Origin: a virus
Lineage: Duplodnaviria > Heunggongvirae > Uroviricota > Caudoviricetes
IMG/VR virus record: IMGVR_UViG_3300033146_004404
Location: 128,001-192,000 of that record
Strand: one strand, 5' to 3'
Length of the DNA: 64,000 nt
A program made the translations under genes and the position numbers. This document shows positions 21,620-59,660 of this stretch, one piece after another. The notes beneath the pieces were generated by a model. It made no database searches. It saw nothing but the letters and a program-made list of their open reading frames with translations, and was not told the origin of the DNA. Each line of letters opens with the position of its first letter. Position 1 is the stretch's first letter.

Positions 21620-22117
21620 ATGATACTAGAACAACTTTTAGAAGAAATAAAATATGGAAAAGAATTCGTTGACTCTAAAAATACAATAAAAGATATAGGC
21701 AGCTTTATTGACGAGGACTATGACATACTTCTTGTTGGTAAAAGATCTTCTGCTTTACTTGAAGGCTGTGACAACACAAAATCTTTTATTAAAAAATTAA
21801 ATAGAGCATCAAGAAACTACCAAGAGTTCGAGAACAAGATTCTTGAAGGAACTAAAGTTTCTTCCATTTATGCAAAAATGAAAATGGATTCAATTGTAGA
21901 GGATATCAATGCTTCAATAACTGAACTTGATAAATCACCAAAAATCTTAAGAGAGTCAAATAAAGATGCAGTTGTAAAAACTATTGCATGTCTTGAACAC
22001 GGGATTTCACTTATTGCCGAACATACATCTTTAGGTGCAAGACAGATAACTGAAGGTAAACAAGTTTTACAGTCTTTCATAAATAAAGAGAAGCGCCTCA
22101 TAGAAGAGGTACTATAA
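21620..22117 (+). CDS. Hypothetical late protein (leader-family related)
   Basis: AGGAG SD, late motif at 21575, N-terminus MILEQLLEEIK. Confidence 0.65.
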   Translation: MILEQLLEEIKYGKEFVDSKNTIKDIGSFIDEDYDILLVGKRSSALLEGCDNTKSFIKKLNRASRNYQEFENKILEGTKVSSIYAKMKMDSIVEDINASITELDKSPKILRESNKDAVVKTIACLEHGISLIAEHTSLGARQITEGKQVLQSFINKEKRLIEEVL

Positions 22118-22149
22118 AAAAAAGACATCCAATTGGATGTCTTTTTTTT
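22116..22149. terminator. Bidirectional intrinsic terminator
   Basis: A-tract + GACATCCAATTGGATGTC + T-tract between convergent genes. Confidence 0.85.
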
Positions 22150-22164
22150 ATTTTCTTCTACTTT

Positions 22165-23805
22165 CTAGTATTTTCTAGTATTTTCTAGTATTTTCTGTTT
22201 AAGGGTTATAGTAGCTTCGTTCGTAGGCTTCTTTTTCATAACTTCAGCAATTTTTTTATCAACTTCTTCAGCCATAATTTTTTTAAAATAATTCATAACT
22301 TTTACTTTGTTTTTAGAATATTCTTTCTTAGCGTCTTCAAGTTCTTTAAGTCTACCAAGCTTAGCAGCAAGTCCAGGAACTTTCTTTAAGAATTCCTCTC
22401 TTGGCGCTTTTCTTTTCATGACGCTTAAAGCTTTAACTCTTTTACTAATAGGAACGATCGCTTTATATTCTTCTCTCATTTTCTTAGGCATCAATCCAAA
22501 AAGTCCCATACCACCAGCATTTGTAATACCAGCATGTCCGCCCATTTCTTCATCTATAATGTTAAAAGCCCAAGTATTATATTTATTTTCAAACTTAGCT
22601 CTAACTTTAGTTAATGACTCTTTCATTATTTCAACAAGGTTAATTGCATCTTTAACTTCTTTAGGAGCTTCAGGACTAAGTGACATCTGGAAGAATCCCA
22701 TTCCATTCCAACTTCTAATCATTGAAAAGTATTTTTTAACATCTGGATCATCATTAGGAACTGTAAATCCAAGATATCTAGAAGGCTGTTTAGCACCAGA
22801 AAGTTCAGATAGCACAATATACTTTCCTGCTTTCTTAAAATAAAGTTCTTTATCTTCAAAGTCTTTTACATTCTTTTCTTTTAATTTTTCTGGAGAGTTA
22901 AGGAATTTTGATTTATTTCCTTTCTTAACTTCCATTGCTAATTCCCTGAAGCCACTTTTTATAAGCTGTTTTCTAATTTCATCTGCTTCTTTCTGGCTAG
23001 GCTCTTTCTTTCTATTTAAAGCGTTCTGTCCTTTATTTGCTAAATTTATAGCTGCAGCTAATTTCTTAGAATAAGTATACATTGACATTAAACTATCACC
23101 GCTGTTTTTAATAAACAGTTTAGAAGCAACAGGAGACTTCATTGGGCCTCTAGCAAACTGAGAAAGATAAATGAACAATCCATTAATTATTTTAAATTCT
23201 TTCTTAGCGGATGGTTTAAGTCCAAGTGCTGAAGAAAGTTTTTCTTTAAAAGTAGCACTATCAGTATCTGAAAATGCTAATACTGCTTTTGCATCAACAC
23301 CTTTAGAAACTATTTTAGTTGCTAAATGTTCTGTATCTGATCTGAAATCTGTAGCGCCGGTCTTTCCGCCACCTGTTGAACGTGGAGTTTCAGTCTCATG
23401 ATGGTCTGAATGAAAGTTGATTGCACCGTTTTTAATTAATGCAGCTACTTTAGGGCCAAATTTTTCAAACCTGTCAAAGTCAACAACAATAATTACTTGA
23501 TTAGCTGATTTCTGTAAAGCTTTCTCTACATGCTGTTGGGTAGAACCATCTGTTACATCTTTATATACGATTCTACTATCTATAATTTTATAGATCTGCT
23601 TGTCTGTCTTTCCTGGATTTTTCTTCTTGAATTTTTTGAAAAGCTGGTTGTGTAACTGTTTTCTAATCATCTTCGCTGAACCAAGTCCGTCCGCATCGTC
23701 ATGGTGTAAAATTTTAAATGACTGAGCAGTAGGAGGTAATCTAATACCTGCCTCGTTGATCATTTCAGCTTTGCTCTCATTTAATATACTCATAAAATTT
23801 TTCAT
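22165..23805 (-). CDS. DHH/DHHA1-family phosphoesterase
   Basis: HHDDADGLGS, VVDFD, SDHHE, SDTDS and C-terminal GGH motifs in the canonical order. Confidence 0.8.
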   Translation of the reverse strand: MKNFMSILNESKAEMINEAGIRLPPTAQSFKILHHDDADGLGSAKMIRKQLHNQLFKKFKKKNPGKTDKQIYKIIDSRIVYKDVTDGSTQQHVEKALQKSANQVIIVVDFDRFEKFGPKVAALIKNGAINFHSDHHETETPRSTGGGKTGATDFRSDTEHLATKIVSKGVDAKAVLAFSDTDSATFKEKLSSALGLKPSAKKEFKIINGLFIYLSQFARGPMKSPVASKLFIKNSGDSLMSMYTYSKKLAAAINLANKGQNALNRKKEPSQKEADEIRKQLIKSGFRELAMEVKKGNKSKFLNSPEKLKEKNVKDFEDKELYFKKAGKYIVLSELSGAKQPSRYLGFTVPNDDPDVKKYFSMIRSWNGMGFFQMSLSPEAPKEVKDAINLVEIMKESLTKVRAKFENKYNTWAFNIIDEEMGGHAGITNAGGMGLFGLMPKKMREEYKAIVPISKRVKALSVMKRKAPREEFLKKVPGLAAKLGRLKELEDAKKEYSKNKVKVMNYFKKIMAEEVDKKIAEVMKKKPTNEATITLKQKILENTRKY

Positions 23806-23807
23806 TT

Positions 23808-24167
23808 TTAATCCTCATCCTCATCTTCATCGTCTCTTTCTTTAACTTTACCTTTGAAGATTTCTTCTATTTCTTTTTTAACAAGTTCAAGCTTATCCAT
23901 TGCAACTTCATGAAGTTTTTCAACATCTGCTTCTTTTTCATCGTCATCATCTCTACCTCGTCCAAGACCAGGACCAGAGAATGGCCCGCCCATACGCATG
24001 CCATTTCCTCTATTGCAAATGTCACGTTTGATGAATTTTAATTCTCTAAGCAGATTAGAGAACGCTCCAAGAAGTCTACTTTCAGCTTCCATAGTTTTAA
24101 ACTGACTGACATCAGATTCGTTTATAATCACTCCTGAGTTTTTTTTCATTTCTTCCATTAGGTTCAT
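23808..24167 (-). CDS. Leader-family hypothetical protein
   Basis: N-terminus MNLMEEMKKNSGVIINE; AGGAG SD. Confidence 0.7.
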   Translation of the reverse strand: MNLMEEMKKNSGVIINESDVSQFKTMEAESRLLGAFSNLLRELKFIKRDICNRGNGMRMGGPFSGPGLGRGRDDDDEKEADVEKLHEVAMDKLELVKKEIEEIFKGKVKERDDEDEDED

Positions 24168-24176
24168 TTTTTTCTC

Positions 24177-24506
24177 CTAGAAAACTTCTTCTTCAGTTTC
24201 CTTGTCCTTATCTTCACTATTTAAGTCTTCATCATTTTTCTTGACTCTAACTTGCACTAAAGGATATTTTTGTTTATCTATTCTTATGCTTTTACCAGTT
24301 TGTTTGAAATCAGCTACTGCTTCTTTCCCTATCCACTTTTTGAAAAGCATGAAGTCGTTTAAGGATTTTTCAAGAACAAAAGCTTTGCCTGTGTCAATTT
24401 GTTTCATTACTACTACAGGGCCTGATTTAATTTCACTTTCTAAAAATTTTACTTTCTGTCCTCTTTGTGTCTCACTTTGCTGTGTTATAAATTCATTTAA
24501 TGTCAT
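24177..24506 (-). CDS. Hypothetical protein
   Basis: 109-aa ORF, N-terminus MTLNEFI, AAGGGA SD. Confidence 0.6.
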   Translation of the reverse strand: MTLNEFITQQSETQRGQKVKFLESEIKSGPVVVMKQIDTGKAFVLEKSLNDFMLFKKWIGKEAVADFKQTGKSIRIDKQKYPLVQVRVKKNDEDLNSEDKDKETEEEVF

Positions 24507-24599
24507 GGTTCCCTTCTGAATTTTGATATATGTCGGAAATTAATTTCCGACATAGAGAACCACAGTTCTCATTAATAATATAGTAGAAATCAGAGATTT

Positions 24600-25412
24600 C
24601 TACTTAGTAGATTTTCTTGCTTTAACTTGTAAGTCTTTCAGAAATCTAACAGTGTTTTTAGCAACAACACTATTTTTTGCTAAACCACTTAGTCCAACTA
24701 TAATAGTTCCAATAGCAGCTACTACTTTACCAGCTATAGTACCAATATTTTTTACTTGTACTATAGGACCTAGTGATTTATTATGCTCTGTTTCTAATTG
24801 CCACAACGCACCTTGGTTAGCTACTTTCTGCGCATCAAGTACTAGAGCTTTTCTGCTTTTATCGAAAAGCATTTCAACGCCTGTAACTTTTTCAGCAGCT
24901 CCAATCAAAACTTTTGCTTCTCCATCTATAGGATTAGGTCCTATATCATGAATGAATCCCTCGATTTCCATTGAGGAAAAAACAGCAAATGCTATAAATC
25001 CAATTACAGCAAATATACCTCCAGTTATAATTAAATGGTTTAGCGTATCATCTTTTTTAATTAGTTTTAGAAATTCATAATATTGTTTTTCTAAAACTTT
25101 ATATTCTTTTTTCAGTCTTGAGACTGAAGCCTTGTCTTTTTTTTGTTTTGCTGTGATAAGATCTTTTTGTAAGCCTTCGAAATTTCTAAGAAGTACTTTA
25201 CAATTTTTTATTGCACCTTCTGTGAGTTTAGCGTCGCCTTTCTTGCCTTTGCTTTCAAGTTTGTCTTTTCTAGTCTCTAACTTTCTTATCATTTTTCTCA
25301 TTGCTTTTAGCTGAGACTCTGATGACCTTAAACCTTCATTAAGTTCATAAACTCCTGAGTTTAACTTAATCTCTTCCATTAACGACATAATACTATTATC
25401 TATATTGCTCAT
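24600..25412 (-). CDS. Leader-family coiled-coil protein with two hydrophobic segments
   Basis: LMEEIKLNSGVYELNEG leader; TM-like LIITGGIFAVIGFIAFAVF; late motif at 25442. Confidence 0.7.
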   Translation of the reverse strand: MSNIDNSIMSLMEEIKLNSGVYELNEGLRSSESQLKAMRKMIRKLETRKDKLESKGKKGDAKLTEGAIKNCKVLLRNFEGLQKDLITAKQKKDKASVSRLKKEYKVLEKQYYEFLKLIKKDDTLNHLIITGGIFAVIGFIAFAVFSSMEIEGFIHDIGPNPIDGEAKVLIGAAEKVTGVEMLFDKSRKALVLDAQKVANQGALWQLETEHNKSLGPIVQVKNIGTIAGKVVAAIGTIIVGLSGLAKNSVVAKNTVRFLKDLQVKARKSTK

Positions 25413-25522
25413 ATTTTTACCTCTATTCTCTTTATTATAATATTATCTTTACAAGTACGTTTTTTTTCTTTTCTGTTTTTTTTGGTAAGATATGTCGTAT
25501 ATACATAAAGGAGAAATAATTA

Positions 25523-26371
25523 ATGGCAAATGAAAAAGCACCAGCTGCTCCAAAAATAGACATGAGCAAAATAGCTAATGTTCCTAACAGAGCTAAAAAG
25601 AATGGTGGCAATAAGTTTAATTTTACACAAGAAGAAACGGCTTCTCTTCCATCAAAGGGACTTCTATATAGAAATATAACTGAAGATAAAGACATTCTTA
25701 ATGGACAGATAAAAATGTTCAACATGACAGTTAAAGATGAAGAAGTTCTTTCAACATCTAGGTTCCTAAAATCTGGGGCTGCTACAAGAATGGTAATAGA
25801 TAATTGTATCTCTTCTGACATTGATGCTAAAGACATCCTACTTTATGATAGTAATTATCTTTTGTTTTTCTTGAGAAGTATTTCCTATGGAGATGAATAC
25901 AAATTCAAACTAAAATGTAGTAATAGTAGCTGTGAAAAAGAGTTTGGACATACAGTTAAAATATCTGAACTTGAATTTAAAGAGTTACCAGATGATATAA
26001 AAGAACCTTTTGTTGTAACTCTTCCTAAGACTAAATATAAAGTTATGTTTGTATTACCTAGATTAGAGCATTCAGAAGAAATTCATAATAGAAGTAAAAA
26101 CAGAGAGAAAACAACTTCTTCATCAGATCAAAGAATGGTTGATAATTTAATAGTAACAACCATTAAAATAATTGCTCCAGACGGATCAGAAGTTCCTCAT
26201 GGAGACTGGGAAGATTTTTTTGAAGCTATTCCTTCAATGGATAGAGCGACATTAAGTGACGCTTCTAGTTATACGACTGGAGTAGATAAACTCGAAGGGG
26301 TAGTATGTCCATACTGCGAGACTGATTACTCGGGTTCGATCCCTATAGGTGCCGAGTTTTTTCGGTTCTAG
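25523..26371 (+). CDS. Baseplate hub assembly / tail assembly chaperone (T4 gp26-like)
   Basis: LPSKG..Y, MTVKDEEVL, D.NYLLFFLRSISYGDEY, CxxxxC and CPYC zinc motifs, ends EFFRF. Confidence 0.8.
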   Translation: MANEKAPAAPKIDMSKIANVPNRAKKNGGNKFNFTQEETASLPSKGLLYRNITEDKDILNGQIKMFNMTVKDEEVLSTSRFLKSGAATRMVIDNCISSDIDAKDILLYDSNYLLFFLRSISYGDEYKFKLKCSNSSCEKEFGHTVKISELEFKELPDDIKEPFVVTLPKTKYKVMFVLPRLEHSEEIHNRSKNREKTTSSSDQRMVDNLIVTTIKIIAPDGSEVPHGDWEDFFEAIPSMDRATLSDASSYTTGVDKLEGVVCPYCETDYSGSIPIGAEFFRF

Positions 26372-26552
26372 TGAAGAAAATTTAGTTCACATACAAGAGA
26401 GCGTCTTTTATTTAGTTAAATGGGGCTTCAGATATGCGGAACTAAAAGATATGCCTTTATTTGAATACAATAAGTATGTAAAAATGCTTAATGAATACAA
26501 TGCTGAAAAGCAAAAGGCAGCTAATCCAGGAGGCACGACAAGGCCAGTTTAA
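26349..26552 (+). CDS. T4 gp51-like short protein, probably made as a frameshift extension of the upstream gene
   Basis: FYLVKWGFRYAELKDMPLFEYNKYVKML resembles gp51/tail-chaperone C-parts; overlaps the upstream ORF in the +1 frame; no good SD. Confidence 0.65.
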   Translation: MPSFFGSSEENLVHIQESVFYLVKWGFRYAELKDMPLFEYNKYVKMLNEYNAEKQKAANPGGTTRPV

Positions 26553-26573
26553 AAGCACTCATTGAGTGCTTTT
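26551..26573 (+). terminator. Intrinsic terminator
   Basis: AAAAGCACTC-ATT-GAGTGCTTTT hairpin. Confidence 0.7.
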
Positions 26574-26589
26574 AAACGTCATGTATTAC

Positions 26590-26618
26590 TTGACAAAAAA
26601 AGAATAATATGTTATACT
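26590..26618 (+). promoter_or_regulatory. sigma70-type promoter, conserved 29-bp repeat, copy 1
   Basis: TTGACA-AAAAAAGAATAATATGT-TATACT, 17-bp spacer. Confidence 0.85.
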
Positions 26619-26708
26619 AATTACAGGAAGCGGCGGAGAGGCTCCGGACGACTAACAAAATAGGCTGGAAATTATAATATAGAATTTTAATAAGGTCTTG
26701 AAGAAAAC

Positions 26709-27669: not shown

Positions 27670-27691
27670 AAACACCCTTCGGGGTGTTTTT
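27670..27691 (+). terminator. Intrinsic terminator with UUCG loop
   Basis: AAACACCC-TTCG-GGGTGTTTTT. Confidence 0.85.
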
Positions 27692-27704
27692 AAAAGAAGG
27701 TAAA

Positions 27705-29669
27705 ATGGCAAAAGAAAAAGAAGTAGTAAAAGAATCTTCTGTTTTTGATAGTCTTGATGACATGATTAAAAAGCAATTCAATAACGTAATTGACCTTTCT
27801 AAAGTGGATGGAAAAGTAAAAACTTGGTATGACACTGGAGTTACAGTGTTAAATTATGCTATGTCAAGAAATTTGAGATATGGTATTCCTGGTGGAAGAA
27901 TTACATCGTTTTCAGGATTAAGTGGTTGTATTTTTGATAATACAATTATTAAAGTTAATAGAGGTAAAAGAACTGAGTGTGGAGAGTATACAGTAAAAGA
28001 ATTATATCAAAAAATGGGATATGATGAAAAATATACTGGAAGAAAATTTGATATGTCTTTACCTACGAATACATTTTCTTTTAAAAAAAGCTGTATAGGG
28101 CATAATGAAATTGTTGAAGTTATTGACTCTGGTGAAAAAGAAACTTTCATGTTAAAAACAGAGAGTGGAAAAACAATAATTGTATCAGAAGAACATCCGT
28201 TCAAAGTTCCTGATGAAAACATAAAAGGAAGAGGAGATCCAGAAAAAGATGACTTTGTCGCTTTGAAAGATTTAGTTGTCGGGGAAACAGTAATGGTAAA
28301 GTCTTCTGCTGATCAAGAAGTTGACTTTGGAAGTAGAAAGAAAAACGGAAGAGGAATAAATGATATTCAATATCCTACGAATACTTGGAGAAAAGAGACT
28401 AATGATGTTTTAGAGGGTTTAGCTAAAAAAGAAAATAATAAAAATCATTCTGTTAAACAAAACTTTAGAGATTTTAGACATAATGATTTTCATTGGGAAA
28501 AAATAGTTTCTATCAATAGCGTTGGAAAAAAACACACTTATGACATACGAATGAAAAAGCCATATAGTAATTTTGTAGCTAATGATTTTGTAGTTCACAA
28601 TACAGGTAAATCACTTATTGCAGCAACTGCTATGAGAGATCCACAGATAGATATGATTATTGTTCTGGAAACAGAAGGTGGTGGTCACGCAAAAGAACTT
28701 ATTGAGTTCGCAGGAGTTGATCCTAAAAAAGTAAGAATTGTAAAAGCTCATACTTTTGGTAATTATAAAATAAATAAAAAAACAAACAAAATTGATGAAG
28801 TTGCCGATTCGAAGTTTCCTGCTAAGTTGGAATCTCCTGATAATCACTTTGTTGAAGGCGCAATAAGACAAACGAAGAAAATTGTTAATGCCTTACAGTT
28901 TAATAAGAAGTTAGAAGATGCTAAAATTCTTTTAATTCTTGACTCACTTGGAAACTTGCAGTCAGTTAGAGAGTTCTCTGGAACTGTTGATATGGGAGCA
29001 AGAGCGCAGGATGTTGGTAGATTTTTTAGAACGTTCGACACAGCATTTGAAAAGTCTAACATAGGTTTTGTTTTTACGAATAAAATTTATGTAAACCTTG
29101 GAAATATCTACGATCCTTATAAAGAGACGGGTGGAGTAAATGCTGAATATAATCCTTCAGTTTCTTGTAGGTTTACTGAGATGGCAGCACATGCTGAAGT
29201 TTCAGATAAAGAGATGTCAGCCGAAAAAGACCGGAGAAAAACTTCTCTTGGTTCCTCTTTGAAAAGTATTAGAGGACAGATTATAAAATCTAGGTTTGGA
29301 ACAGAAAGAAGAAATTGTTGGTTCTTGCTTGACTTTGCAGTTGGGCCAGTTAAACATTCTGGATTATTCACACTACTTAAAGATTTTGGATTAGTTTCTA
29401 AATCTGGTAGTAGATACTCTGTTAATGGATGGAGAAAAGATAATTCTTTTTATAAGAAAGACTTCATTAAATTGTTAATGGAAGATGAAGAAGCTAATCT
29501 TGATATCTTCCAAGCTCTATTGGATGCTAAAGAAGTTAGCATGAAAGAAGAAAAAAAGAACTTGAATGTCAATGACTTAACAGAAGTTAATAACATAGAC
29601 GATGAAGAAGATGATGAATACGCAGCTTCAGAAATGATAAATGCTATGGAAAATTTAGAAGAAGGATAA
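27705..29669 (+). CDS. recA: RecA/UvsX-like recombinase, intein-containing
   Basis: DTG...LN.A....GIPGGRITSFSGLSG|TGKS Walker A, LETE, LILDSLGNL Walker B, TGG, IIKSRF; ATG 27705 with GAAGG SD. Confidence 0.9.
   Translation: MAKEKEVVKESSVFDSLDDMIKKQFNNVIDLSKVDGKVKTWYDTGVTVLNYAMSRNLRYGIPGGRITSFSGLSGCIFDNTIIKVNRGKRTECGEYTVKELYQKMGYDEKYTGRKFDMSLPTNTFSFKKSCIGHNEIVEVIDSGEKETFMLKTESGKTIIVSEEHPFKVPDENIKGRGDPEKDDFVALKDLVVGETVMVKSSADQEVDFGSRKKNGRGINDIQYPTNTWRKETNDVLEGLAKKENNKNHSVKQNFRDFRHNDFHWEKIVSINSVGKKHTYDIRMKKPYSNFVANDFVVHNTGKSLIAATAMRDPQIDMIIVLETEGGGHAKELIEFAGVDPKKVRIVKAHTFGNYKINKKTNKIDEVADSKFPAKLESPDNHFVEGAIRQTKKIVNALQFNKKLEDAKILLILDSLGNLQSVREFSGTVDMGARAQDVGRFFRTFDTAFEKSNIGFVFTNKIYVNLGNIYDPYKETGGVNAEYNPSVSCRFTEMAAHAEVSDKEMSAEKDRRKTSLGSSLKSIRGQIIKSRFGTERRNCWFLLDFAVGPVKHSGLFTLLKDFGLVSKSGSRYSVNGWRKDNSFYKKDFIKLLMEDEEANLDIFQALLDAKEVSMKEEKKNLNVNDLTEVNNIDDEEDDEYAASEMINAMENLEEG
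27927..28601 (+). mobile_element. Intein in RecA P-loop (225 aa, no recognisable endonuclease)
   Basis: Starts CIFDNT, block B SEEHPF, ends TYDI.M..PYSNFVANDFVVHN/T. Confidence 0.9.
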
Positions 29670-29672
29670 ATA

Positions 29673-30005
29673 ATGGCAAAAGAAAAAGTTAAAGATTTAG
29701 AGGCAAGAACAAGCATTTCACCTCTAGGAGAAATGATAATAATCAGCTTTCATAAAGCTGAAAAGAAAAACAAAACAGAGTCTGGGCTTATTCTAATGGA
29801 CAATGGCGAAGACAAGTATCATTCAGTAGTTGACGCTATTGGAAACAAAGTTGATCTTGAGACATGTGGATTTAAAGTTGGAGATAAAATAATCTTTAAT
29901 CAGCACGATGTAATGTCGTTTAATGAAACTGATCCAGAGAATCCTTTGAAGGAAATCCAGAAAGGGCTGATTAAAGCAGACTCTATCTGGGGAGTTTACG
30001 CATAA
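29673..30005 (+). CDS. groES: Co-chaperonin GroES-like
   Basis: ISPLGEMIII...KTESGLIL...V.AIG...FKVGDKIIF...I.GV. Confidence 0.85.
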   Translation: MAKEKVKDLEARTSISPLGEMIIISFHKAEKKNKTESGLILMDNGEDKYHSVVDAIGNKVDLETCGFKVGDKIIFNQHDVMSFNETDPENPLKEIQKGLIKADSIWGVYA

Positions 30006-41262: not shown

Positions 41263-41292
41263 AAAAGGCAACCAATTGGTTGCCTTTTTTAA
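41259..41292. terminator. Bidirectional intrinsic terminator
   Basis: TTAAAAAAGGCAACCAATTGGTTGCCTTTTTTAA perfect palindrome that contains both convergent stop codons. Confidence 0.85.
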
Positions 41293-42785
41293 TTCATATT
41301 ATTTTTAATTTTATTTTCTGCCTCAGCTGCTCTAACTTTATTTGGTTGGTTGGTATTATTCTTTGCTTTTCTAGCGGCACTTCTCATAGCCCTACTGTTA
41401 CGTTCTTTTTTCTTATTTTCATCTCTTGCAGTTTCAGCTTTATTGTATATCTTAAGAGCTTCTGGATCCATTGGATTCATGCTAGCATATTTTTCAGCTG
41501 CTTCGGGAGAAATGTACTTAGCAACTAAAGCTTTGCCTGTAAAAGCATCTTTAACAGCAGTAGCTTTATTTGTTATTGCTTCTGTTCCTTTTTTAACATA
41601 CTTTTGATTAGCAATGCTTTGAACTATTTTTTGAGGTTTAGGTATTTTATCAAGGTTCAATCTCTTTTTAAGTGTTTTTGATGCAGCACCAAGAGCAGTA
41701 CTTTCTCGTGCGTTTTTAAACTTCTGGGTTGCTTTTATTGAAATTTCAAGATCGTATTTATTTGATACATTATTAGAAGCATTTTTAAGTTTTCTAGCTT
41801 CTGACGAAGCTTTTATTCTCTTAGTAGAATTCGATTTTGATTTAAAATTTACTTGCTGATCTCTTGCTTTGTTTATAAGATTGTTCATCTCTTTATTATA
41901 CTTATTAATAAGTTTTCTATTTTTAGCTTGTATAAGAGGGTTTTGAATTACTTTGAAGCGCTCTTCAAACTTACTTAGATTTTTTTGTTTTATTGCTTCT
42001 ATTTCATCGGCGATAGAGTTAGGACTATCTTTACTCATTCTTACTTTTGAATCTGGATCTATTTCTTCAGGCTCTTCATAAGTAGATCCTTCTGCTTCAG
42101 CTTTTGCTTTTGCTTTTGCTTTTGCTTTTGCTTGATTAACCCTTGACCTGTCATATGTTGTATCTTGTTCGTTTTCAGGCTTTCCAATTGAGTTTCTAAT
42201 TTCTTCACTTTCTGCACTGGCTTGTTTAGCATTTGCTGCCATTACTGCTGGATCAGTTTCATCTGTTTTATCATCTGTTTTATCATCTGTTTTATCATCT
42301 GTAGTTTTAGTGCCTTCAGCTCCAGCTTTATTTTTATTATTTTCGGCTTTAGCTTCTCTTCTGTACTTAGTTACCGTTTTCGTTGAGCTAGTAGTAATTG
42401 CGCTAATGATTTTATCATCTATTTCTTTAGCTTTATCTTTAACGTCATCTCCAGTATTTCCTTCTGTATTGAAGTTAAGCTTCTTCATCTGTTCCTTATC
42501 TTTGCTAAGGACTGATATTGCAAAAGCTAAATCATAGAATGCTGAAGACGGGTCGTTAAAAATTTTTACCATGGCTGAAGTAGGATTCTTTTCGATTCGA
42601 GTTTTAAGTTGAAGAACAAGATCTTGATCTATCTTTTTAATCACTTCCTTTGCTTTAGCAACAACTTCAGGAATTCTTTTCCATTGTTTCCCAAGCCCTT
42701 GAGTTTTAATTATTTGTTTGAAGCTATTGTTATCTTCATTTTCATTTAATGTCTTGTTGTTATAAAATTCTCTAAAAGAGCTCAT
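41289..42785 (-). CDS. K/A-rich late protein, putative internal head protein
   Basis: N-terminus MSSFREFYNNKTLNE resembles the T4 capsid-targeting sequence; TDDK and KA repeats; triple late motif upstream. Confidence 0.6.
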   Translation of the reverse strand: MSSFREFYNNKTLNENEDNNSFKQIIKTQGLGKQWKRIPEVVAKAKEVIKKIDQDLVLQLKTRIEKNPTSAMVKIFNDPSSAFYDLAFAISVLSKDKEQMKKLNFNTEGNTGDDVKDKAKEIDDKIISAITTSSTKTVTKYRREAKAENNKNKAGAEGTKTTDDKTDDKTDDKTDETDPAVMAANAKQASAESEEIRNSIGKPENEQDTTYDRSRVNQAKAKAKAKAKAEAEGSTYEEPEEIDPDSKVRMSKDSPNSIADEIEAIKQKNLSKFEERFKVIQNPLIQAKNRKLINKYNKEMNNLINKARDQQVNFKSKSNSTKRIKASSEARKLKNASNNVSNKYDLEISIKATQKFKNARESTALGAASKTLKKRLNLDKIPKPQKIVQSIANQKYVKKGTEAITNKATAVKDAFTGKALVAKYISPEAAEKYASMNPMDPEALKIYNKAETARDENKKKERNSRAMRSAARKAKNNTNQPNKVRAAEAENKIKNNMN

Positions 42786-42808: not shown

Positions 42809-42844
42809 ATTACCTTTACTATTACCTTTACTATTATCTTTACT
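42809..42844 (-). promoter_or_regulatory. Three tandem 12-bp late-promoter motifs
   Basis: + strand ATTACCTTTACT ATTACCTTTACT ATTATCTTTACT, i.e. AGTAAAG(A/G)TAAT x3 on minus. Confidence 0.7.
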
Positions 42845-42890: not shown

Positions 42891-44180
42891 ATGGCATATT
42901 CACATCTCCACGTCCATTCCCATCTTGGGAGTCAGCTTGATGGAATCGGAACATCGGAACAATACGCTAAATTAGCAAAAGAAATGGGACATCCATCTCT
43001 AGCAATAACAGATCACGGAAAAATGAACGGTCATTACGATCACTTCCTAGCTTGTAAAAAACATGGGATTAATCCTATATTTGGAGTTGAAGCATACGTT
43101 GAATTCGAGCTAGAACGATTTGAAGAAAAGAATGGAAAACAGAAAAGAGTTAGAAATAAGAATATGCACTTAGTCCTCCTTGCAAAGAACGAAGTCGGTT
43201 ATAAAAATCTTCTTAAGCTGAACTATAAATCTATGTCTGATGAAAAACATTTCTATTACAAGAATCATATAACCATAAAAGAACTCTTTGAAAACAAAGA
43301 AGGGATAATCGTAGGAACAGCTTGTATGGGATCTCCGTTCGCAAGACTATATAGAGACAAAAAAATAGTAGAAGCAGAGAAGTTATTTAAACTATTTAAG
43401 AATCAATTCGGTGAAGACTTCTATGCTGAGTTACAAATAAATGAAATAGATCATTCCATTGATAACTTTGAAGAAGGACAGAAATCTGTAAACGCATTTA
43501 TTTTGAGGTTAGCTAAAGAGTATGATGTTCCAGTTGTGCTTACTGGTGACGTTCATTATTCAAAAAAGGGGATGGCAAAAATACAAACACTAGCAATAGC
43601 AATCAGTAGAAAAGTAACTCTTGATGAACTTGATTGGGAACTTGAAGGAAAGAGTTTGTTTTATATGGACATTCCTGACTTTAAAAAATTCAATGAAGAT
43701 TGGGGTTATGGATATACAAATCAGCAGATCGAAGAATGGTGTGAGAACACTCAGCTTATTGCTGATAGATGTGACTTTCAATACAGAGAGAGGAATAGAG
43801 TTCTCCTTCCAACGTTTTCGGAAGATGATGATGCTTTATTAATAAAAGAAAGTATGAAAGGATTAGCTGAGAAATTAAAAGTTGAAGACTTTAAACATGC
43901 TCCAAAAGAATATAGAGAAAGATTAGCGAAAGAACTTGAGATCATATTAAGGAAGGGGTTTGCTTCATATATTATGATATTATGGGATGTGTTTAATTTT
44001 GCAAAAGAAGAAGATATAATGCGAGGTCCCGCTCGGGGCAGCGGTGGTGGTTCATTACTTTTGTATGCTCTTGATATAACAACATTAGATCCAATAAAAT
44101 ATGAACTCATCTTTGAACGTTTCTTGTCGGATCAGAGATCCGTAGATGTTGTTTATGATTGGTTTGGTGAAATAAAATAA
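42891..44180 (+). CDS. dnaE: DNA polymerase III alpha, part A (PHP domain plus start of palm)
   Basis: HLHVHS, AITDHG, GVEAY, HLVLLAKN.VGYKNL, GDVHY, RGSGGGS, LIFERFL. Confidence 0.95.
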   Translation: MAYSHLHVHSHLGSQLDGIGTSEQYAKLAKEMGHPSLAITDHGKMNGHYDHFLACKKHGINPIFGVEAYVEFELERFEEKNGKQKRVRNKNMHLVLLAKNEVGYKNLLKLNYKSMSDEKHFYYKNHITIKELFENKEGIIVGTACMGSPFARLYRDKKIVEAEKLFKLFKNQFGEDFYAELQINEIDHSIDNFEEGQKSVNAFILRLAKEYDVPVVLTGDVHYSKKGMAKIQTLAIAISRKVTLDELDWELEGKSLFYMDIPDFKKFNEDWGYGYTNQQIEEWCENTQLIADRCDFQYRERNRVLLPTFSEDDDALLIKESMKGLAEKLKVEDFKHAPKEYRERLAKELEIILRKGFASYIMILWDVFNFAKEEDIMRGPARGSGGGSLLLYALDITTLDPIKYELIFERFLSDQRSVDVVYDWFGEIK

Positions 44181-51001: not shown

Positions 51002-52318
51002 ATGTTAAAAAAACTACAGGAAATGGTAGATGATCTTTCATCTACTAACTCAAAGAATGAAAAACTTGAGAGACTTAAAAAATACGATGATGAATTTACT
51101 CTTGCATTGATTAAGTACGCTCACGATCCGATGATACAATTTAATGTGACGTCGAAAACTATAAAAGCTTACACAGGCTCTCATAAAAATAGAGTTATGG
51201 TAGAGGATGACATATTCTCTTTGCTAGATCAGTTAAAAGACAGAAAACTCACTGGTCACGCAGCACTTGCAGCAGTAAGAGAATACGTAGATTCTTTTAA
51301 ACAGTATGAAGATCTTATCTATTCAATCATAGATAAAAATTTAAAAATAAGAATGAGTGACAGCTCAATAAACAAAGTATTCCCAGATCTCATCCCAGAG
51401 TTCAAAGTGCAACTCGCAGACAAATATAATAAAGACAGACTTCCTCCATTCAAAACAGAGAAGTGGTACTCATCAAGAAAACTGGACGGTGTTAGATGTA
51501 TTGCAGTAGTGGATTTTACTTTTGGGAAAGAAGTAGTGGACTTTTACAGCAGGACTGGCAAAGAGTTCTTCACGCTTGGCGTCGTAGGTGTCGCAATAAA
51601 AAAAGAATTAAAAAAAATTTATACCAACGAAAAATTCATCTTAGACGGCGAAATGTGTATTGTTGACGAGAAAGGTGATGAAAGCTTTTCTGAAGTTATA
51701 AAGCTTGTCAGAAAGAAAGATTATTATATAGAAAATCCAAGATATAAAATCTTTGATATAATTCTTTTTGATGACTTTATAAAGAAATCAGGAAAAACTC
51801 TTTTTAGTAAACGCTATGATAAATATATGCAGATTAAATCACCTTCTGGCATTCTTGATCCTGTAAAACAGACAGTCATTGAAGACGAAGAAGATTTTAA
51901 CATTTGTAATGTCGAAGCTATTACGAATGAATGGGAAGGGTTAATAATAAGAAAAGATTGTGAATATGCCGGAAAACGTTCTAAGAACATGCTAAAAGTA
52001 AAACAATTTCATGAAGCAGAATATGTTGTTAAAAGTATTGGAACTGATATGGTTAGATATATTGATGAGACTACTGGAGTTGAAGCTGAAGAAGAAATGC
52101 TTAAGCGAATTAACATAATCCACAAAGGAAACAATGTCGGTGTTGGTTCTGGATTTTCTTTACAGCAGAGAAAAGATTTCTTTAAAGACCCTTCATTAAT
52201 AATAGGAAAGACAATAACAGTTAAATTTTTTGAAGAGTCAATGGATGCCAAATCAGGAATGTATTCATTAAGGTTTCCAGTATTGAAAGCGATTCATGGA
52301 AAAGAGAGAGTAGTGTAA
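51002..52318 (+). CDS. ATP-dependent DNA ligase
   Basis: KLDGVRC, YSRTGK, LDGE, IFD, EGLIIR, KRSKNMLKVK, VGSGF, SLRFP. Confidence 0.95.
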   Translation: MLKKLQEMVDDLSSTNSKNEKLERLKKYDDEFTLALIKYAHDPMIQFNVTSKTIKAYTGSHKNRVMVEDDIFSLLDQLKDRKLTGHAALAAVREYVDSFKQYEDLIYSIIDKNLKIRMSDSSINKVFPDLIPEFKVQLADKYNKDRLPPFKTEKWYSSRKLDGVRCIAVVDFTFGKEVVDFYSRTGKEFFTLGVVGVAIKKELKKIYTNEKFILDGEMCIVDEKGDESFSEVIKLVRKKDYYIENPRYKIFDIILFDDFIKKSGKTLFSKRYDKYMQIKSPSGILDPVKQTVIEDEEDFNICNVEAITNEWEGLIIRKDCEYAGKRSKNMLKVKQFHEAEYVVKSIGTDMVRYIDETTGVEAEEEMLKRINIIHKGNNVGVGSGFSLQQRKDFFKDPSLIIGKTITVKFFEESMDAKSGMYSLRFPVLKAIHGKERVV

Positions 52319-52350
52319 AGATAATTATATAAAAAAGTAAGGATTATATA

Positions 52351-53814
52351 ATGACTTTAATAGAAGAGATTAGAAGAAACTCTGGGGTTGAGTTAAATGA
52401 GACAATTCATGGACGATTAACAATAAGAGCTATAAAAAAGATTCAGAAAGAAGTTGATAAAATGTATTCTAAGGAAGCAGCTTCCTTAGACTCTAGTTCC
52501 AGTAAAGCTGATAAAAAAGATCTTGAATATTTTGGAATTTTTAGAAGAAGAGTTAGCGAAGTAGTGATAGAGCTTGAAACCCTTGATAAGAAGACTAATT
52601 CATCAAGAGGATTTGAGAGAAGAATGAATAAAGAGAAATTCAAATCTCTTGAAACTAAATATTCTGCTTTAATTTCTGCTTCAAGACATATGAAGAAATC
52701 AAGAAAGTTGAAAATATTAGGGGTTCTAGTTCTAACTTCAGGAATAAGTATGTATATAGCCACCAGAATTGGTGTTGATCTTCCTAATCCTGGTGGCTTT
52801 AATGCGTGGATAAATATGTTATTAGTTGGTGGTGGAATGGGGGCTCTTGGATCGTCGGATTTGAAAAACATGCAAAAAAACGAGGAAATGGATAAAGCCC
52901 TTGTAAGGCTAGTATCAGAAGAGCTTGAGAAAAAGTCTAAGGGAGACTATAAAAAAAAGAGCAGTAAATTAGATGAAAGCGTAAGTGATAAGGTTGAAAG
53001 TTCAAAGAAAAGGATCTTTAGAAAAATAAGAATAGCAGTTGAGCTATCACGAAAAAAACGTTCAAAGAAGTTTTTTGCTGGCTTGTATAAAATATTGAAA
53101 AAGAAAGGTCAGCAAGAAGAAAAAATAGATGAAGCTTTAATAACTAAGGCTGATATTAAAATGCTTTTCTGGGGACATAATTCCCCAGAAGAAACTAAAT
53201 CAGTTAATAAAATGACTAAAGATATTTTACGTATTAGCTTTAAAGAGATAAAGAATATAGATAAGATAGAAAAATCTGTAGATAAACTTTTGAGTCTACT
53301 TATTAAGAATGAATATGATAAACAAGATGAGAAAGATTACAAAGAAATACAGAAGGTCTTTAGAAAAAATAAAATAAAAATTGAAAGTGTTATAGGTGGA
53401 GATTCTGATGCTCAAGGAGTTCATCAGTTAGAATCTAAAAAAACAGTTTTTTCTGTAGATATAACAAAGAATAGAGAAATAGTAAAATCTACTATTATTC
53501 ATGAATTAACGCATAAGAAACAGTCAGAGCTCTTAAAGAAATACGCCCCAAGAACTTGGAAACGTCTTTGGATGAGAATAAATGACAAAGATTATCACGA
53601 TATTGCAATGGAAGTAGGTGCTTTTCATGAAGAGTATGTTTATTTAATAGAGAAGATGGAAAAAGCTGACAAGAAAACAAAAAGAGTATTATCAGCTTTT
53701 TTAATAGAAGAGATTTTCTACAGAGATAACTTAAAGGACAATATTTTGAGGGACTATCCAAAAAATGATCCTGTAGTAAAATTTATAAAGAGAGTTAAAG
53801 TAATAAAAATATAA
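52351..53814 (+). CDS. Leader-family protein: coiled coil, two hydrophobic helices, C-terminal HExxH zincin-like domain
   Basis: MTLIEEIRRNSGVELNE; IIHELTHKKQ...Y....MEVGAF; late motif at 52315. Confidence 0.65.
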   Translation: MTLIEEIRRNSGVELNETIHGRLTIRAIKKIQKEVDKMYSKEAASLDSSSSKADKKDLEYFGIFRRRVSEVVIELETLDKKTNSSRGFERRMNKEKFKSLETKYSALISASRHMKKSRKLKILGVLVLTSGISMYIATRIGVDLPNPGGFNAWINMLLVGGGMGALGSSDLKNMQKNEEMDKALVRLVSEELEKKSKGDYKKKSSKLDESVSDKVESSKKRIFRKIRIAVELSRKKRSKKFFAGLYKILKKKGQQEEKIDEALITKADIKMLFWGHNSPEETKSVNKMTKDILRISFKEIKNIDKIEKSVDKLLSLLIKNEYDKQDEKDYKEIQKVFRKNKIKIESVIGGDSDAQGVHQLESKKTVFSVDITKNREIVKSTIIHELTHKKQSELLKKYAPRTWKRLWMRINDKDYHDIAMEVGAFHEEYVYLIEKMEKADKKTKRVLSAFLIEEIFYRDNLKDNILRDYPKNDPVVKFIKRVKVIKI

Positions 53815-54212: not shown

Positions 54213-54321
54213 TTATTCTCTCCTTGTAAAGATAAAGGAGAGAATAATTATTTTCTCCCTGTAAAGATAATATAAAGGAGAGAATAATTATTTTCTCCCT
54301 GTAAAGATAATATAAAGGAGA
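54213..54321 (+). repeat. Three tandem 34-40 bp hairpin units, each with late motif and SD
   Basis: TTATT(C/T)TCTCC(T/C)T-GTAAAGATAA(TATA)-A(A)GGAGAGAATAA repeated at 54213, 54248 and 54288. Confidence 0.9.
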
Positions 54322-54325
54322 AGCT

Positions 54326-55027
54326 ATGACCTTAAGAAAGAAGATAGAAATGACTTCTATCAATGAAGAAAATGAGTATTTAGTAGAAGGAATTCGATTC
54401 TTCAAAACTTCAAAAAAAATCACTTCATATATAAAAAAAATAGAAAAAAAGAATACCAACGGATCTCTTGATGGCCTAATAGAGCGACTTGAAAGAGTAT
54501 CTAAAAACTTTGAAGTCGCCGAAAGAATGCACCAAACTGGTAGAAAAACTGAAGCAAAACAATTATATTTACAGTACAAAAAAGATAATATTTTATTAAT
54601 GACTGCTCTAAATAAAGAATCAACTAAGAAAATATTAGTAAGACTAGGAATAGGATTAATTGTATTACAAGTTCTTTTAAGTATGACTACCGGAATTGGT
54701 TTATATGAAAGATTATTTATGAGAGGAGCATCGACAGCAGCAAGAATGGCTGGAAGATCAGGAGCTTTAGTTTCAACTGAAGTTCTTAGCGATAATCTTC
54801 CTGGCTCATCAGGGGCTCCTTCTTTAGAATCCCTTGACGCATCGCAACTCGTACTAAACAATGAAATAAAAAACTTAAAGAAAGATGTAGGTTTTTCTAA
54901 AGATGCAATAAAAGACAAAGCTAAAGAACTTGCAGCTCTTGAGAAGTTTGAAAAAGCACTAAAAAAGTTTAATAAAGCAAATGGAAAAGGACTAAGCATC
55001 TTAGATAAGATATTAGGTAGAAAATAA
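54326..55027 (+). CDS. Late membrane-helix protein, paralogue of the next gene
   Basis: LVEGIRFFKTSKKI..YIKKIEKKN..G..D.LI..L; hydrophobic ILVRLGIGLIVLQVLL. Confidence 0.7.
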   Translation: MTLRKKIEMTSINEENEYLVEGIRFFKTSKKITSYIKKIEKKNTNGSLDGLIERLERVSKNFEVAERMHQTGRKTEAKQLYLQYKKDNILLMTALNKESTKKILVRLGIGLIVLQVLLSMTTGIGLYERLFMRGASTAARMAGRSGALVSTEVLSDNLPGSSGAPSLESLDASQLVLNNEIKNLKKDVGFSKDAIKDKAKELAALEKFEKALKKFNKANGKGLSILDKILGRK

Positions 55028-55062
55028 TTTAATCTGTAAAGTTAAGTATATAAATAATAACA

Positions 55063-55797
55063 ATGGAGAAAACTATGAATTTAATGGAAGAAATTACAAG
55101 TAATGCTGGTGTAGAGTATCTTGAAAAATCTATTTCCCTTGAAGAAGATTTAAAAAATCCAGACAACTTCTATATAACAGAAGGTCTTGTGTTTTTTAAA
55201 ACTTCTAAGAGATTAGAGAAATATATCAAAAAACTTGAGAAAAAGAATAAAGACGGAGCTATTGATATTTTGATAAACAAGCTAAAAGACACACGAGCTA
55301 ATTTTGTCAAAGTTGAAGCTATGCACAAAAACGGCGAAAGAAAAAAAGCTAAAGAACTATACAAGAAGCTAAGAACTGATAACGTAGGAATAGTTCGAAT
55401 GATGAGAAAAGATTCTATGAAAAAAGCTTTAATAACTGCTGGTGTTGCAGGATTAGCTCTTACAGCAGTAGGATTTGCTGTTTATGGAATGGGCGGATTT
55501 GGTATAGCTGGAGCAAAAATTGCTTCAGGCGTAGGTGCATTAAAAGGCAAGGCTGCAGAAGGAGCAGGTGCATTAAAAGGCAAGGCTGCAGACGTATTTG
55601 GAAAAGGCGCTGAAGCCCCAGGTGTTAGAACTGGATTTGGCCAAGATGTAGGCAACAAAGCTTATCAGGGAAGAAAAATTTTAGGCGCTAATAAAATTAG
55701 AACATTAGAAGCTATTCCTGCGACTCCTTCTGATTCTCAGTACTTAAAAAATATGGAGAAAATGCAAGCAGTTATTTCTGGTCATCGAAACGTTTAA
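55063..55797 (+). CDS. Leader-family membrane-helix protein
   Basis: MNLMEEITSNAGV; ITEGLVFFKTSKRL..YIKKLEKKN; G/A-rich hydrophobic segment; GALKGKAA repeat. Confidence 0.7.
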   Translation: MEKTMNLMEEITSNAGVEYLEKSISLEEDLKNPDNFYITEGLVFFKTSKRLEKYIKKLEKKNKDGAIDILINKLKDTRANFVKVEAMHKNGERKKAKELYKKLRTDNVGIVRMMRKDSMKKALITAGVAGLALTAVGFAVYGMGGFGIAGAKIASGVGALKGKAAEGAGALKGKAADVFGKGAEAPGVRTGFGQDVGNKAYQGRKILGANKIRTLEAIPATPSDSQYLKNMEKMQAVISGHRNV

Positions 55798-55821
55798 GAT
55801 ATAGATCAACTAGATAATTAA

Positions 55822-55850
55822 TTGACAAAAAAAGAATAATATGTTATAAT
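55822..55850 (+). promoter_or_regulatory. sigma70-type promoter, copy 9 (DnaE part D, leaderless)
   Basis: TTGACA-N17-TATAAT, ATG 6 nt downstream. Confidence 0.9.
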
Positions 55851-55856
55851 TCTTAT

Positions 55857-58205: not shown

Positions 58206-58242
58206 TGTAAAGGTAATAATATCAAACGATAAAAGGAAAAAT

Positions 58243-58899
58243 ATGTTATTAACAGAAGAGATTAGAAAGAATGCAGGGTATGAAATAGATGAAGGTCGAT
58301 ATTTGACAGAAACAGAAAAAGAGTTTTTAACAGAAGCTAAGAAAAGAGCTTCTGAAAAAATTAATGATGTTTTAGACATCCTAAAGAAACAAGAAAGAAG
58401 AGCTCGTTTACATGCAGAAGAGTACGGCTCTTCAGAAGCTCGATCATACGCAACTAAGTGGGAAAAAGTAGTTGAATCCACTGAAAAATTTGTAAAAGAC
58501 TTTGCCCAGACTGAAAAGGATCTAAAAAAAACTAAGTTTAATAGAAATAGAAAAGAGTTTTTTAAGGCTAAAATTGAAAGGTTGAAAAAAAGCCATAAGT
58601 TATTATATGCTGAAGCTAAGGAATTAGATAGAGCTAGGAATGAAGCTAAGAAAGTTGCAAAGAAAAGTATTAAGTTTTCATATGCTGCTATAGTGATAGC
58701 ACCTTTAATTTTAGGTTTAGGGTCAGCTATATTTCCTCCTCTTGCAGCATTTTTAGCAGCAGTAGTAGCTTCTACAGTCACTGCAGTACTTCCTTCAGAA
58801 CATTATAGAAAAAAATCGGATAAGATGAAAAGCGCAGCTAGAAATAGATTAGTTAATAGTAGAGATGAGGATGAATTGTTTAAGAGCGTGACTGATTAA
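58243..58899 (+). CDS. Leader-family coiled-coil protein with hydrophobic hairpin
   Basis: MLLTEEIRKNAGYEIDEG..LTE; long apolar stretch FSYAAIVIAPLILGLGSAIFPPLAAFLAAVVASTVTAVLP; late motif at 58207. Confidence 0.7.
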   Translation: MLLTEEIRKNAGYEIDEGRYLTETEKEFLTEAKKRASEKINDVLDILKKQERRARLHAEEYGSSEARSYATKWEKVVESTEKFVKDFAQTEKDLKKTKFNRNRKEFFKAKIERLKKSHKLLYAEAKELDRARNEAKKVAKKSIKFSYAAIVIAPLILGLGSAIFPPLAAFLAAVVASTVTAVLPSEHYRKKSDKMKSAARNRLVNSRDEDELFKSVTD

Positions 58900-58901
58900 T
58901 A

Positions 58902-59321
58902 ATGAGGCTTAACCATAAAACTTTAATAGATGATAGACAAGTAACTCCATTTCTAGTACAGGGAGCTAACGTCTATTGTTTTGACGAGAAAAAACAAACT
59001 GTTATTCTTGATGTTGAAAAATTTAAGAAGAGCAAGAAAAATATTGTAAGATCTATTATGCCAAGAGCAGTAATTAGAAGAAAGAAAGCTTCCTTTAATT
59101 ACGCAGGAAGTGGAATAATTTCATTAATAGGATCTGCTGATTATAAAACAATAAAGAAGAAATCTACTAAGAAAAAAATAGATCTCTCTTATACTGCGGA
59201 AGGTTCTATTAAAGTTTTCGGCGCTTCTAATACAAGTATGGAAAATAAAACGTTTGTAGTCCCTCCTATTATAGATAATACTAGGTACTTAAGACCTACG
59301 TTAGACGATGAGTACATTTAG
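58902..59321 (+). CDS. Hypothetical protein
   Basis: 139-aa ORF in operon. Confidence 0.55.
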   Translation: MRLNHKTLIDDRQVTPFLVQGANVYCFDEKKQTVILDVEKFKKSKKNIVRSIMPRAVIRRKKASFNYAGSGIISLIGSADYKTIKKKSTKKKIDLSYTAEGSIKVFGASNTSMENKTFVVPPIIDNTRYLRPTLDDEYI

Positions 59322-59327
59322 GAGAAA

Positions 59328-59660
59328 ATGATGGATTTTAGAGAAATATTAAACGAAGAATTAAACGTACAGTTTGTAAATAAAGAGCTTGCTGGATTAG
59401 AAGCTTCTAAGAAGCAGTTAGATGCAGTGGTTCAACAGAATCCATTAATTGGAAAACAAATAGCGGCACCTATAGCTGAAATAGACAAGAAAATAACAAG
59501 TCTTAAATATGCCGTTGCCGAATATGTTAATAAAGAGAAAATGCAAAAGAAAGCTGGAGTCGGTTCACAAACCCAAGCACAGCCTACTTTACCTACGCCT
59601 GCTGCAAAACCAGCTCCAGCAACTCCTGCTGCAGCTCCAGCAGTAAAACCAGCTCAATAA
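59328..59660 (+). CDS. Hypothetical protein with P/A-rich tail and CTS-like start
   Basis: MDFREILNEE; AGGAG SD. Confidence 0.6.
   Translation: MMDFREILNEELNVQFVNKELAGLEASKKQLDAVVQQNPLIGKQIAAPIAEIDKKITSLKYAVAEYVNKEKMQKKAGVGSQTQAQPTLPTPAAKPAPATPAAAPAVKPAQ

Follow-up and report, generated by a model that had tools for sequence, protein, structure and literature searches.

What purpose a short N-terminal peptide shared by several late phage proteins might serve is the question raised by the window described here, that is, the whole 64,000-nucleotide stretch analyzed, which covers positions 128001-192000 of one 201,184-bp IMG/VR phage record (about 32% G+C); positions refer to this window unless marked 'genome'. 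Five proteins of the window, p1 to p5 (Table 1), start with this peptide, here called the long leader, and a first-pass annotation had proposed that it acts as a modular signal loading a varied cargo into the head for injection at infection, comparable to the capsid-targeting sequence (CTS) of T4. By analogy with T4, the leader is probably a CTS-like capsid-targeting propeptide in a longer, lineage-specific form, which would be removed by the prohead protease. Delivery of the cargo as injected effectors is the weaker part of the proposal and may follow from the same analogy.

Judged by its genes, the phage is an uncultured, distant relative of T4. Its T4-type head module lies outside the window, at genome ~65.5-77 kb. 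No close cultured phage was found, the best capsid-protein identities being about 25-32%, and a blastn search of the neighborhood against a phage collection returned no match.

A leader shared by late proteins

All five open reading frames (ORFs) were present where the first-pass annotation had placed them and begin as quoted there. The pattern L.EE[ILMV]..N[SA]G had exactly five matches in a six-frame translation of the whole 201,184-bp genome, each 5-22 residues past a stop codon and hence at the N-terminus of an ORF, and a profile of the five leaders, run across the genome, matched those five only (E 3e-17 to 3e-15). With p4 started at its likely ATG (55075, MNLMEE..., GGAG 7 nt upstream), four of the five leaders begin M-x-L-x-E-E, p2 having eight extra residues in front, and the leader measures about 17 residues with the consensus M-x-L-x-E-E-I-x-x-N-[SA]-G-[VL]-x(1-4)-[LI]-x-E. 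The terminal [LI]-x-E ends 3-9 residues (usually 4-6) after the invariant Gly in 13 of 15 long leaders, against 14% of background N-termini (P = 2e-9). Synonymous codon positions vary among the five leaders (CTA/TTA, GAA/GAG, AAC/AAT, TCA/TCT/GCT/GCA, GGA/GGG/GGT), so conservation acts on the peptide, and an element at the DNA or RNA level was ruled out as its cause. Our own guess from the L3/I7 spacing and the N-[SA]-G break is that the leader may fold as a short amphipathic helix, with the cut site in an extended stretch behind it.

The bodies behind the leaders had been described as different, which was borne out at the level of similarity: with the first 30 residues removed, no BLAST similarity was detected, except between p4 and its paralog p6, which has a degenerate leader. 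In overall plan the description did not hold, four of the five proteins having one architecture (leader, basic coiled coil, hydrophobic segment). Proteins p2, p3, p4 and p5, together with p6, are strongly basic (net +15 to +38) and contain hydrophobic segments of membrane type, and p1 is small, acidic and soluble. Orthologs of p1 in the relatives G005 and L183 retain the leader. No relatives of the p2 and p3 loci were found by protein-based search, and p3 was an orphan in a search of 5.8 billion proteins.

Intergenic regions show two promoter types, a near-invariant sigma-70-like early promoter and a late motif, GTAAAG(A/G)TAA(T), that sits 25-45 nt 5' of structural genes. For every leader gene, the nearest same-strand upstream promoter-like element was the late motif, in agreement with the earlier statement that these genes lie in late-motif units; it stands 25-46 nt before the start of p2, p3, p4, p5 and p6, and p1 and some genes of the second group described below are operon-internal. 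Leader-type N-termini are not equally common in early genes: genome-wide, they were found in 12 of 92 late-unit ORFs and in 0 of 101 early-unit ORFs (Fisher P = 9e-5). The early promoter, TTGACAAAAAAAGAATAATATGGTATAAT, is nearly invariant in more than 25 copies genome-wide (e.g. 5' of window positions 42891, 55857, 59713 and 62558). The T4 late promoter TATAAATA was considered as the late signal of this phage and rejected. The host may be Gram-positive-like, to judge from an extended -10 element and strong GGAGG ribosome-binding sites.

A second group of five genes, for which starts resembling the T4 CTS had been reported, was likewise recovered in full (short leaders in Table 1, including MKLKEITE). 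A post hoc pattern derived from the T4 CTS ([FY]xE[FYIL][ILYN] at residues 2-6) fitted six N-termini, against 0.65 expected from its internal rate (P ~6e-5). Stronger support for these candidate leaders than this pattern is given by leader swapping and by positional orthologs: orthologous bodies carry a short leader in some cases and a long one in others, and the positional orthologs of the 41289-42785 gene in the relatives G004 and G007 keep SF(R/E)E(F/Y) at their starts (SFREF(Y), SFREY, SFEEY) on bodies diverged past BLAST recognition. That the short leader (M-x-x-F-x-E-[FY]-[IL], MTLRE[FI]IL) and a third type (LLEE[IV]KYG) replace the long one on orthologous bodies suggests a common function; the third-type N-terminus, as in the 21620-22117 gene, also heads some members of the p4 family elsewhere.

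Predicted cleavage motif, head protease and relatives

In T4, the capsid protein gp23 is cut at maturation after FLTE (FLTE/A, the slash marking the cut). This site aligns with LLNE/DELNE/AP in the present phage and close relatives, and with ILME/E in the 208-kb relative G004. When the prohead protease was aligned with T4 gp21 (from NC_000866), H85 and S140 (T4 numbering) were invariant across the clade. Cleavage after L/I-x-E is the rule for T4 gp21 (PMC9026906). Those features of a T4-type CTS system that can be looked for in sequence, namely a shared peptide, the L/I-x-E motif, the protease and the capsid cleavage rule, all appear to be in place here.

An [LI]xE motif at the border between leader and body was seen in three cargo families: the p4 family, the proteins resembling DHH phosphoesterases, and a cargo protein of the relative G006. 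In the p4 family, six members from the clade align with an invariant Glu-Gly, with L or I at P3, directly before the body motif G[LI]xFFKxSK[KR], and the leaders ahead of this border differ in length and type. When 1.84 billion cluster representatives were searched with a profile, 265 relatives of the p4 family came up (196 at E <=1e-10). The border was counted in those 79 of 150 listed representatives (265 found) that have the body motif in the first 60 residues: the residue before the motif Gly was Glu in 79/79 and P3 was L or I in 78/79, and the preceding stretch of 3-51 residues was a long leader, a short leader (MNINEMLLQE, MATIEEILNE) or the third type (LLEEVKYGxDY). Orthologs of the DHH-like protein, which is conserved in G004, G005, G009 and L183, keep [LI]NE directly before [AS]GIRL (MINE/AGIRLP, KLNE/SGIRL, MLLNE/SGIRLP, LLLNE/SGIRIP), and the G006 cargo has its border [LI]xE when compared with its sole distant homolog, which starts MKPTEYIDLLLE. 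A variable N-terminal piece that meets a conserved body exactly at a protease motif has the look of a propeptide.

Genes of the p4 family also keep company with the head protease. Nine more IMG/VR fragments with p4-family genes were found, six of which encode Peptidase_S77 though only 16-44% complete. The gene order in G009 is portal, X382, a 177-aa gene, the p4-family gene (leader ...SIRTNSGVEEL...), protease, a 78-aa gene, scaffold and capsid protein; on three other contigs, the p4-family gene has a 21620-like gene and the protease gene as neighbors and lies about 1 kb or less from the protease. A C-terminal SLT transglycosylase domain was present in 8/65 p4-family members and a 2OG-Fe(II) oxygenase domain in one.

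Relatives carrying the leader were found by scanning IMG/VR contigs with a back-translated DNA pattern of the leader; the listed matches of the metagenome scan belong mostly to unrelated protein families, and among the matches listed, true leaders come from the same phage clade only. The close relatives G005, G006 and G007 are fragments of 27-32% G+C; the capsid protein of G006 is 77% identical, and G005 and G007 have many common genes at 30-81% identity. The leader in these fragments sits on a p4-family protein, a p1 ortholog and a 293-aa soluble protein. The gene for the 293-aa protein is inserted beside the terminase gene of G006, and the window genome lacks an ortholog of it; an AF2 model of the protein (pLDDT 44) was unusable, and an Atlas features search returned no named family.

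In G004, a 207,680-bp contig with 55 common ORFs (capsid protein 38% and protease 48% identical), at least 11 genes start M[TN]LRE[EDQ][IV]..N[SA]G or a shortened form (MTLREFILKE, MTLREILNE). Six of these stand in tandem within the head module, between a portal-adjacent conserved gene and the scaffold gene, a slot that is the place of T4 genes 67 and 68 (T4 locus from NC_000866), and one lies directly between protease and scaffold. One of the six array proteins is ferritin-like (PF00210, 2.5e-16), and its domain starts at residue 33, right behind the leader, so that the leader is here joined as a module to a domain that arose independently. The leader is not confined to membrane proteins, as most of the leader proteins of G004 are small and soluble. 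The ferritin-like protein may be a capsid-packed iron-binding or DNA-protecting protein, recalling encapsulin cargo.

Small genes in the corresponding slots were also noted elsewhere. In the head modules of G001, G002, G003 and G006 (e.g. L055:9169-9678, L057:8277-8669), the X382-protease and protease-scaffold slots hold non-homologous small genes whose starts resemble MEVKNFIDNSLNE, MATVKSFIDESLEE and MKLSSRIKRSASLNE; in a 223-aa slot protein of G003, the leader motif is internal (KEDILHNAGLILNEE).

Table 1. Leader genes, late motifs and head-module genes, with one leader gene of a relative
Feature	Position	Strand	Remarks
83-aa basic ORF	21213..21464	(-)	GTG start, MKLKEITE; weakest second-group member
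165-aa protein	21620..22117	(+)	third leader type, LLEEIKYGKEF
DHH-family phosphoesterase-like protein	22165..23805	(-)	short leader MKNFMSILNE-SKAEMINE, then AGIRLP
p1	23808..24167	(-)	119 aa, soluble, acidic; long leader MNLMEEMKKNSGVIINE
109-aa protein	24177..24506	(-)	short leader MTLNEFI
p2	24600..25412	(-)	270-aa late protein, basic, two hydrophobic segments; long leader MSLMEEIKLNSGVYELNE from residue 9
Late motif GTAAAGATAAT	25443..25451	(-)	40 nt upstream of p2
498-aa basic protein	41289..42785	(-)	short leader MSSFREFYNNKTLNE; behind three late motifs
Three tandem late motifs	42810..42842	(-)	upstream of the 41289-42785 gene
Late motif	52316..52324	(+)	36 nt upstream of p3
p3	52351..53814	(+)	487 aa, basic; leader MTLIEEIRRNSGVELNE, one hydrophobic segment, C-terminal HELTH motif
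Three tandem late motifs	54227..54310	(+)	upstream of p6
p6	54326..55027	(+)	p4 paralog; degenerate leader MTLRKKIEMTSINEENEYLVE, then G
Late motif variant GTAAAGTTAA	55037..55045	(+)	upstream of p4
p4	55063..55797	(+)	likely start 55075, MNLMEEITSNAGVEYLE...ITE, then G; body motif G[LI]xFFKxSK[KR], coiled coil, hydrophobic segment
Late motif variant GTAAAGGTAA	58208..58216	(+)	36 nt upstream of p5
p5	58243..58899	(+)	218 aa, basic; leader MLLTEEIRKNAGYEIDE, two hydrophobic segments
110-aa protein	59328..59660	(+)	short leader MMDFREILNE; p5 operon
Major capsid protein	head module, outside window		Pfam Gp23, 3e-58
Scaffold-like acidic protein	head module, outside window
Prohead protease	head module, outside window		Peptidase_S77 (PF03420), 4e-20 to 5e-21; genome 68597-69199 (-)
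Portal	head module, outside window		Portal_T4, 3e-71
Large terminase with intein	head module, outside window
Ferritin-like leader protein of G004	L042:6961-7488 = G004 166961-167488	(-)	in T4-type head module

Further features were recorded for individual genes. The DHH-like protein is 546 aa long and very basic, with HHDDADG and DHH motifs and a predicted propeptide, and its match to Pfam DHH (9.4e-5) is below the cut-off. Weak Atlas look-alikes of p3 residues 290-487, which include the HELTH motif, were metallopeptidases of the ArdC/IrrE/Peptidase_M78 type (TM 0.4-0.5, unconfirmed); with an AF2 model of this C-terminal HExxH region (pLDDT 67), Foldseek found nothing in the PDB at E <=0.001, and the best Z of a wide VIA-align search was 4.8. 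By eye, an ORF like FtsZ/tubulin-type GTPases (GGGSGSS loop) was recognized at 61486-62508 (+), and a RecA/UvsX-like recombinase, seemingly with an intein, followed by a GroES/gp31-like co-chaperonin, at 27684-30005 (+). An HD-domain ORF resembling SpoT/RelA-type (p)ppGpp hydrolases (HxGQxR...LLHD) was likewise noted by eye in G006 (L047:13848-14414) and is absent from the window genome.

Weighing the readings

Modeled on T4, the proposed mechanism would run as follows. Late in infection, the leader would attach the proteins that bear it to the scaffolding core while the prohead assembles. Cleavage after [LI]-x-E by the gp21-type serine protease would follow, freeing the mature body inside the head, and some bodies would leave the head with the DNA and enter the host. 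Predicted cuts fall after INE17 in p1, LNE17 in p3 and LLE16 in the ferritin-like protein of G004, and the mature p4 and DHH-like protein would begin at G37 and A19, respectively. The cargo would comprise soluble proteins (ferritin-like, DHH phosphoesterase-like and small acidic proteins) and basic coiled-coil proteins with a hydrophobic segment. For the basic membrane-segment proteins, some of which have an SLT domain in other phages, a role as ejection or pilot proteins is favored.

The earlier claim of a modular signal for varied capsid cargo draws partial support from the modular, late-expressed N-terminal leader, the gp21-family protease, the conserved L/I-x-E, the head-module location in relatives, the ferritin fusion and the swapping of leaders; four of the five window proteins are very basic and membrane-type, unlike T4 internal proteins.

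Several observations weigh against a capsid-targeting propeptide. The long-leader profile matched nothing in the whole T4 genome, and in a local hidden Markov model search of the 10-kb T4 head locus, the top match, the gp67 N-terminus LIEAIKSN, was not significant (E = 2.2). The head module of the window genome contains none of its long-leader genes, and none of them stands between portal and protease. The scaffold protein is only mildly enriched in L/I at P3 of Glu (31% vs 20%, P = 0.03). One p4-family representative has just MNE before the Gly, and the invariant [LI]xE-G of this family could be part of the folded body and not a cleavage site. Hydrophobic membrane-type segments are carried by four of the five window proteins and by p6, and we know of no T4 internal protein that has them; this unlikeness leaves room for a membrane-tether or lysis role of the basic, hydrophobic-segment subset. 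A complex prediction of the scaffold with leader alignments (score 0.00) gave no verdict and was used neither way.

A more far-reaching version of the capsid-targeting reading is put forward tentatively, as a possibility that we would not call likely: a deep-branching T4-like lineage may load both membrane-inserting basic coiled-coil proteins and soluble enzymes by means of exchangeable leaders and eject them as pilot or counter-defense proteins. A T4-type phage with a contractile tail would then have an ejection set in podovirus style, addressed by a plug-in system in which three or more leader types can stand in for one another.

It is unlikely that p2 to p6 and the p4 family act instead as a membrane tether, staying in the cell membrane while the leader anchors the nascent prohead core and the [LI]xE cut detaches the prohead, with the bodies never packaged or injected. 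The hydrophobic segments of p2, p3, p4, p5 and p6, the invariant cut-site motif directly after a variable leader and the adjacency of p4-family genes to the protease gene in several phages would fit such a role, as would the way in which T4 proheads form on the membrane and come off it once gp21 processing has taken place (PMC9026906). The leader is, however, shared by soluble proteins (p1, the ferritin-like protein, five small G004 head-module proteins and the 293-aa G006 protein); the C-terminal SLT transglycosylase of 8/65 p4-family members would be needless for a tether, and, except at the portal, it is difficult to see how the leader could be enclosed in a shell while its body stays outside.

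Weak PHROG matches to families labeled 'hemolysin' (p2 4.8e-4, p4 0.012), the SLT fusions of some p4-family members and the position of the genes behind the late motif, which would entail late expression, could point to lysis or the envelope, with the basic coiled-coil membrane proteins as XhlA-like holin partners or membrane-anchored murein hydrolases and the leader as a pro-region or regulatory peptide unrelated to the capsid. We regard this as improbable: these matches are weak, a Pfam search at E <=0.1 brought up no family, not even XhlA, and the proposal leaves unexplained the leader on soluble proteins, the tandem array in the G004 head module, the adjacency to the prohead protease and the T4-protease motif at every leader/body border.

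Very improbable is a tag for other machinery (a radical-SAM modifying enzyme, a chaperone or a degradation system) or a remnant of one ancestral gene: the genome does encode at least eight radical-SAM-like ORFs and a GroES-like protein (by eye), but none of these radical-SAM-like ORFs (genome 12.9 kb and 99-113 kb) lies within ~39 kb of any long-leader gene of this genome (genome 151.8-153.4 and 180.3-186.9 kb), a tag recognized by a radical-SAM enzyme (RiPP-like, as in ribosomally synthesized and post-translationally modified peptides) was rejected because the enzyme genes are unlinked to the tagged genes, leader genes in relatives associate with head genes and the head protease, and the ferritin fusion speaks against simple paralogy. 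A separate observation concerns four tandem paralogs of 95-172 aa outside the window (genome 34575-36189), all starting MKKR[IR]GFVSNSSSSSF, which, together with the radical-SAM-like ORFs (CxxxCxxC near the N-terminus; at least eight in the genome, at ~99-113 kb among tail-fiber genes), may form a tag-plus-maturase system unrelated to the leader.

Likeness to known systems and meaning

The capsid-targeting reading can be set beside several known systems. In T4, the first 10 residues of IPIII are enough for packaging, and among the diverse internal proteins of T-even phages nothing but the CTS is conserved (PMC9026906, PMC3012670); its sequence is MKTYQEFIAE (PMC8442874). Like the CTS of IPI, IPII, IPIII and Alt, which the gp21 prohead protease removes, the leader is a short N-terminal peptide on otherwise unrelated proteins and has L/I-x-E at its end; the genome also encodes a protease of the gp21 family, and the cargo is diverse with fast turnover; the short leaders, with [FY]xE[FY][IL], resemble the CTS pattern itself. 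Unlike the CTS, the main leader is about 17 residues long and has its own consensus, LxEEIxxN[SA]G[VL], with no significant similarity to T4, and at least three leader types coexist and swap. The putative cargo, known here from sequence alone, also departs from that of T4 in including basic membrane-segment proteins, a ferritin-like protein and a DHH-like enzyme, as does the tandem array of six cargo genes inside the head module of one relative.

A second T4 parallel is offered by gp67 and gp68, whose genes lie between those for the portal (gene 20) and the protease (gene 21). Likewise, the G004 array and the p4-family gene of G009 sit between portal and protease/scaffold, and these are small proteins with L-x-E near the N-terminus; the start of gp67, MEGLIEAIKSND, resembles LxEEIxxN, though not significantly (E = 2.2 in the 10-kb test), and the long-leader genes of the window genome, unlike genes 67 and 68, are located elsewhere. 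The giant phages phiKZ, 201phi2-1 and SPN3US resemble the present phage in having propeptides cut after Glu by a gp21-like protease on many head proteins, and paralogous or variable cargo that is ejected. Giant phages of the phiKZ type use S/A/G-x-E (PMC9026906), whereas P3 is L or I here, as in T4, in the leaders, the capsid protein and the p4-family border; a shared leader of this kind is not described for giant phages in the cited review (PMC9026906). Cargo-loading peptides of encapsulins are similar in that a short terminal peptide sends varied cargo, including ferritin-like proteins, inside an HK97-fold shell; unlike the complete tailed-phage head module found here, encapsulins have no portal, protease processing or DNA. 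New in the present case are the consensus of 17 residues, the coexistence and swapping of three or more leader types and the tandem cargo array in the head module, as well as the putative ferritin-like and DHH-like cargo and the p4 family, which is widespread, has membrane-type segments and occasionally carries an SLT domain.

If the capsid-targeting reading is true, a single address peptide with many swappable capsid passengers would not be peculiar to T-even phages, and such addressing would date far back in the T4 superfamily and have diversified there into lineage-specific peptides. The leaders would then serve as an annotation key to orphan late proteins of uncultured T4-like phages that are probably virion-internal and delivered together with the DNA, and leader-marked proteins would be the first to meet host defenses. 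The p4 family (265 clusters, often beside the head protease) would gain a role, and the invariant leader/body border would give exact predicted N-termini of the mature proteins.

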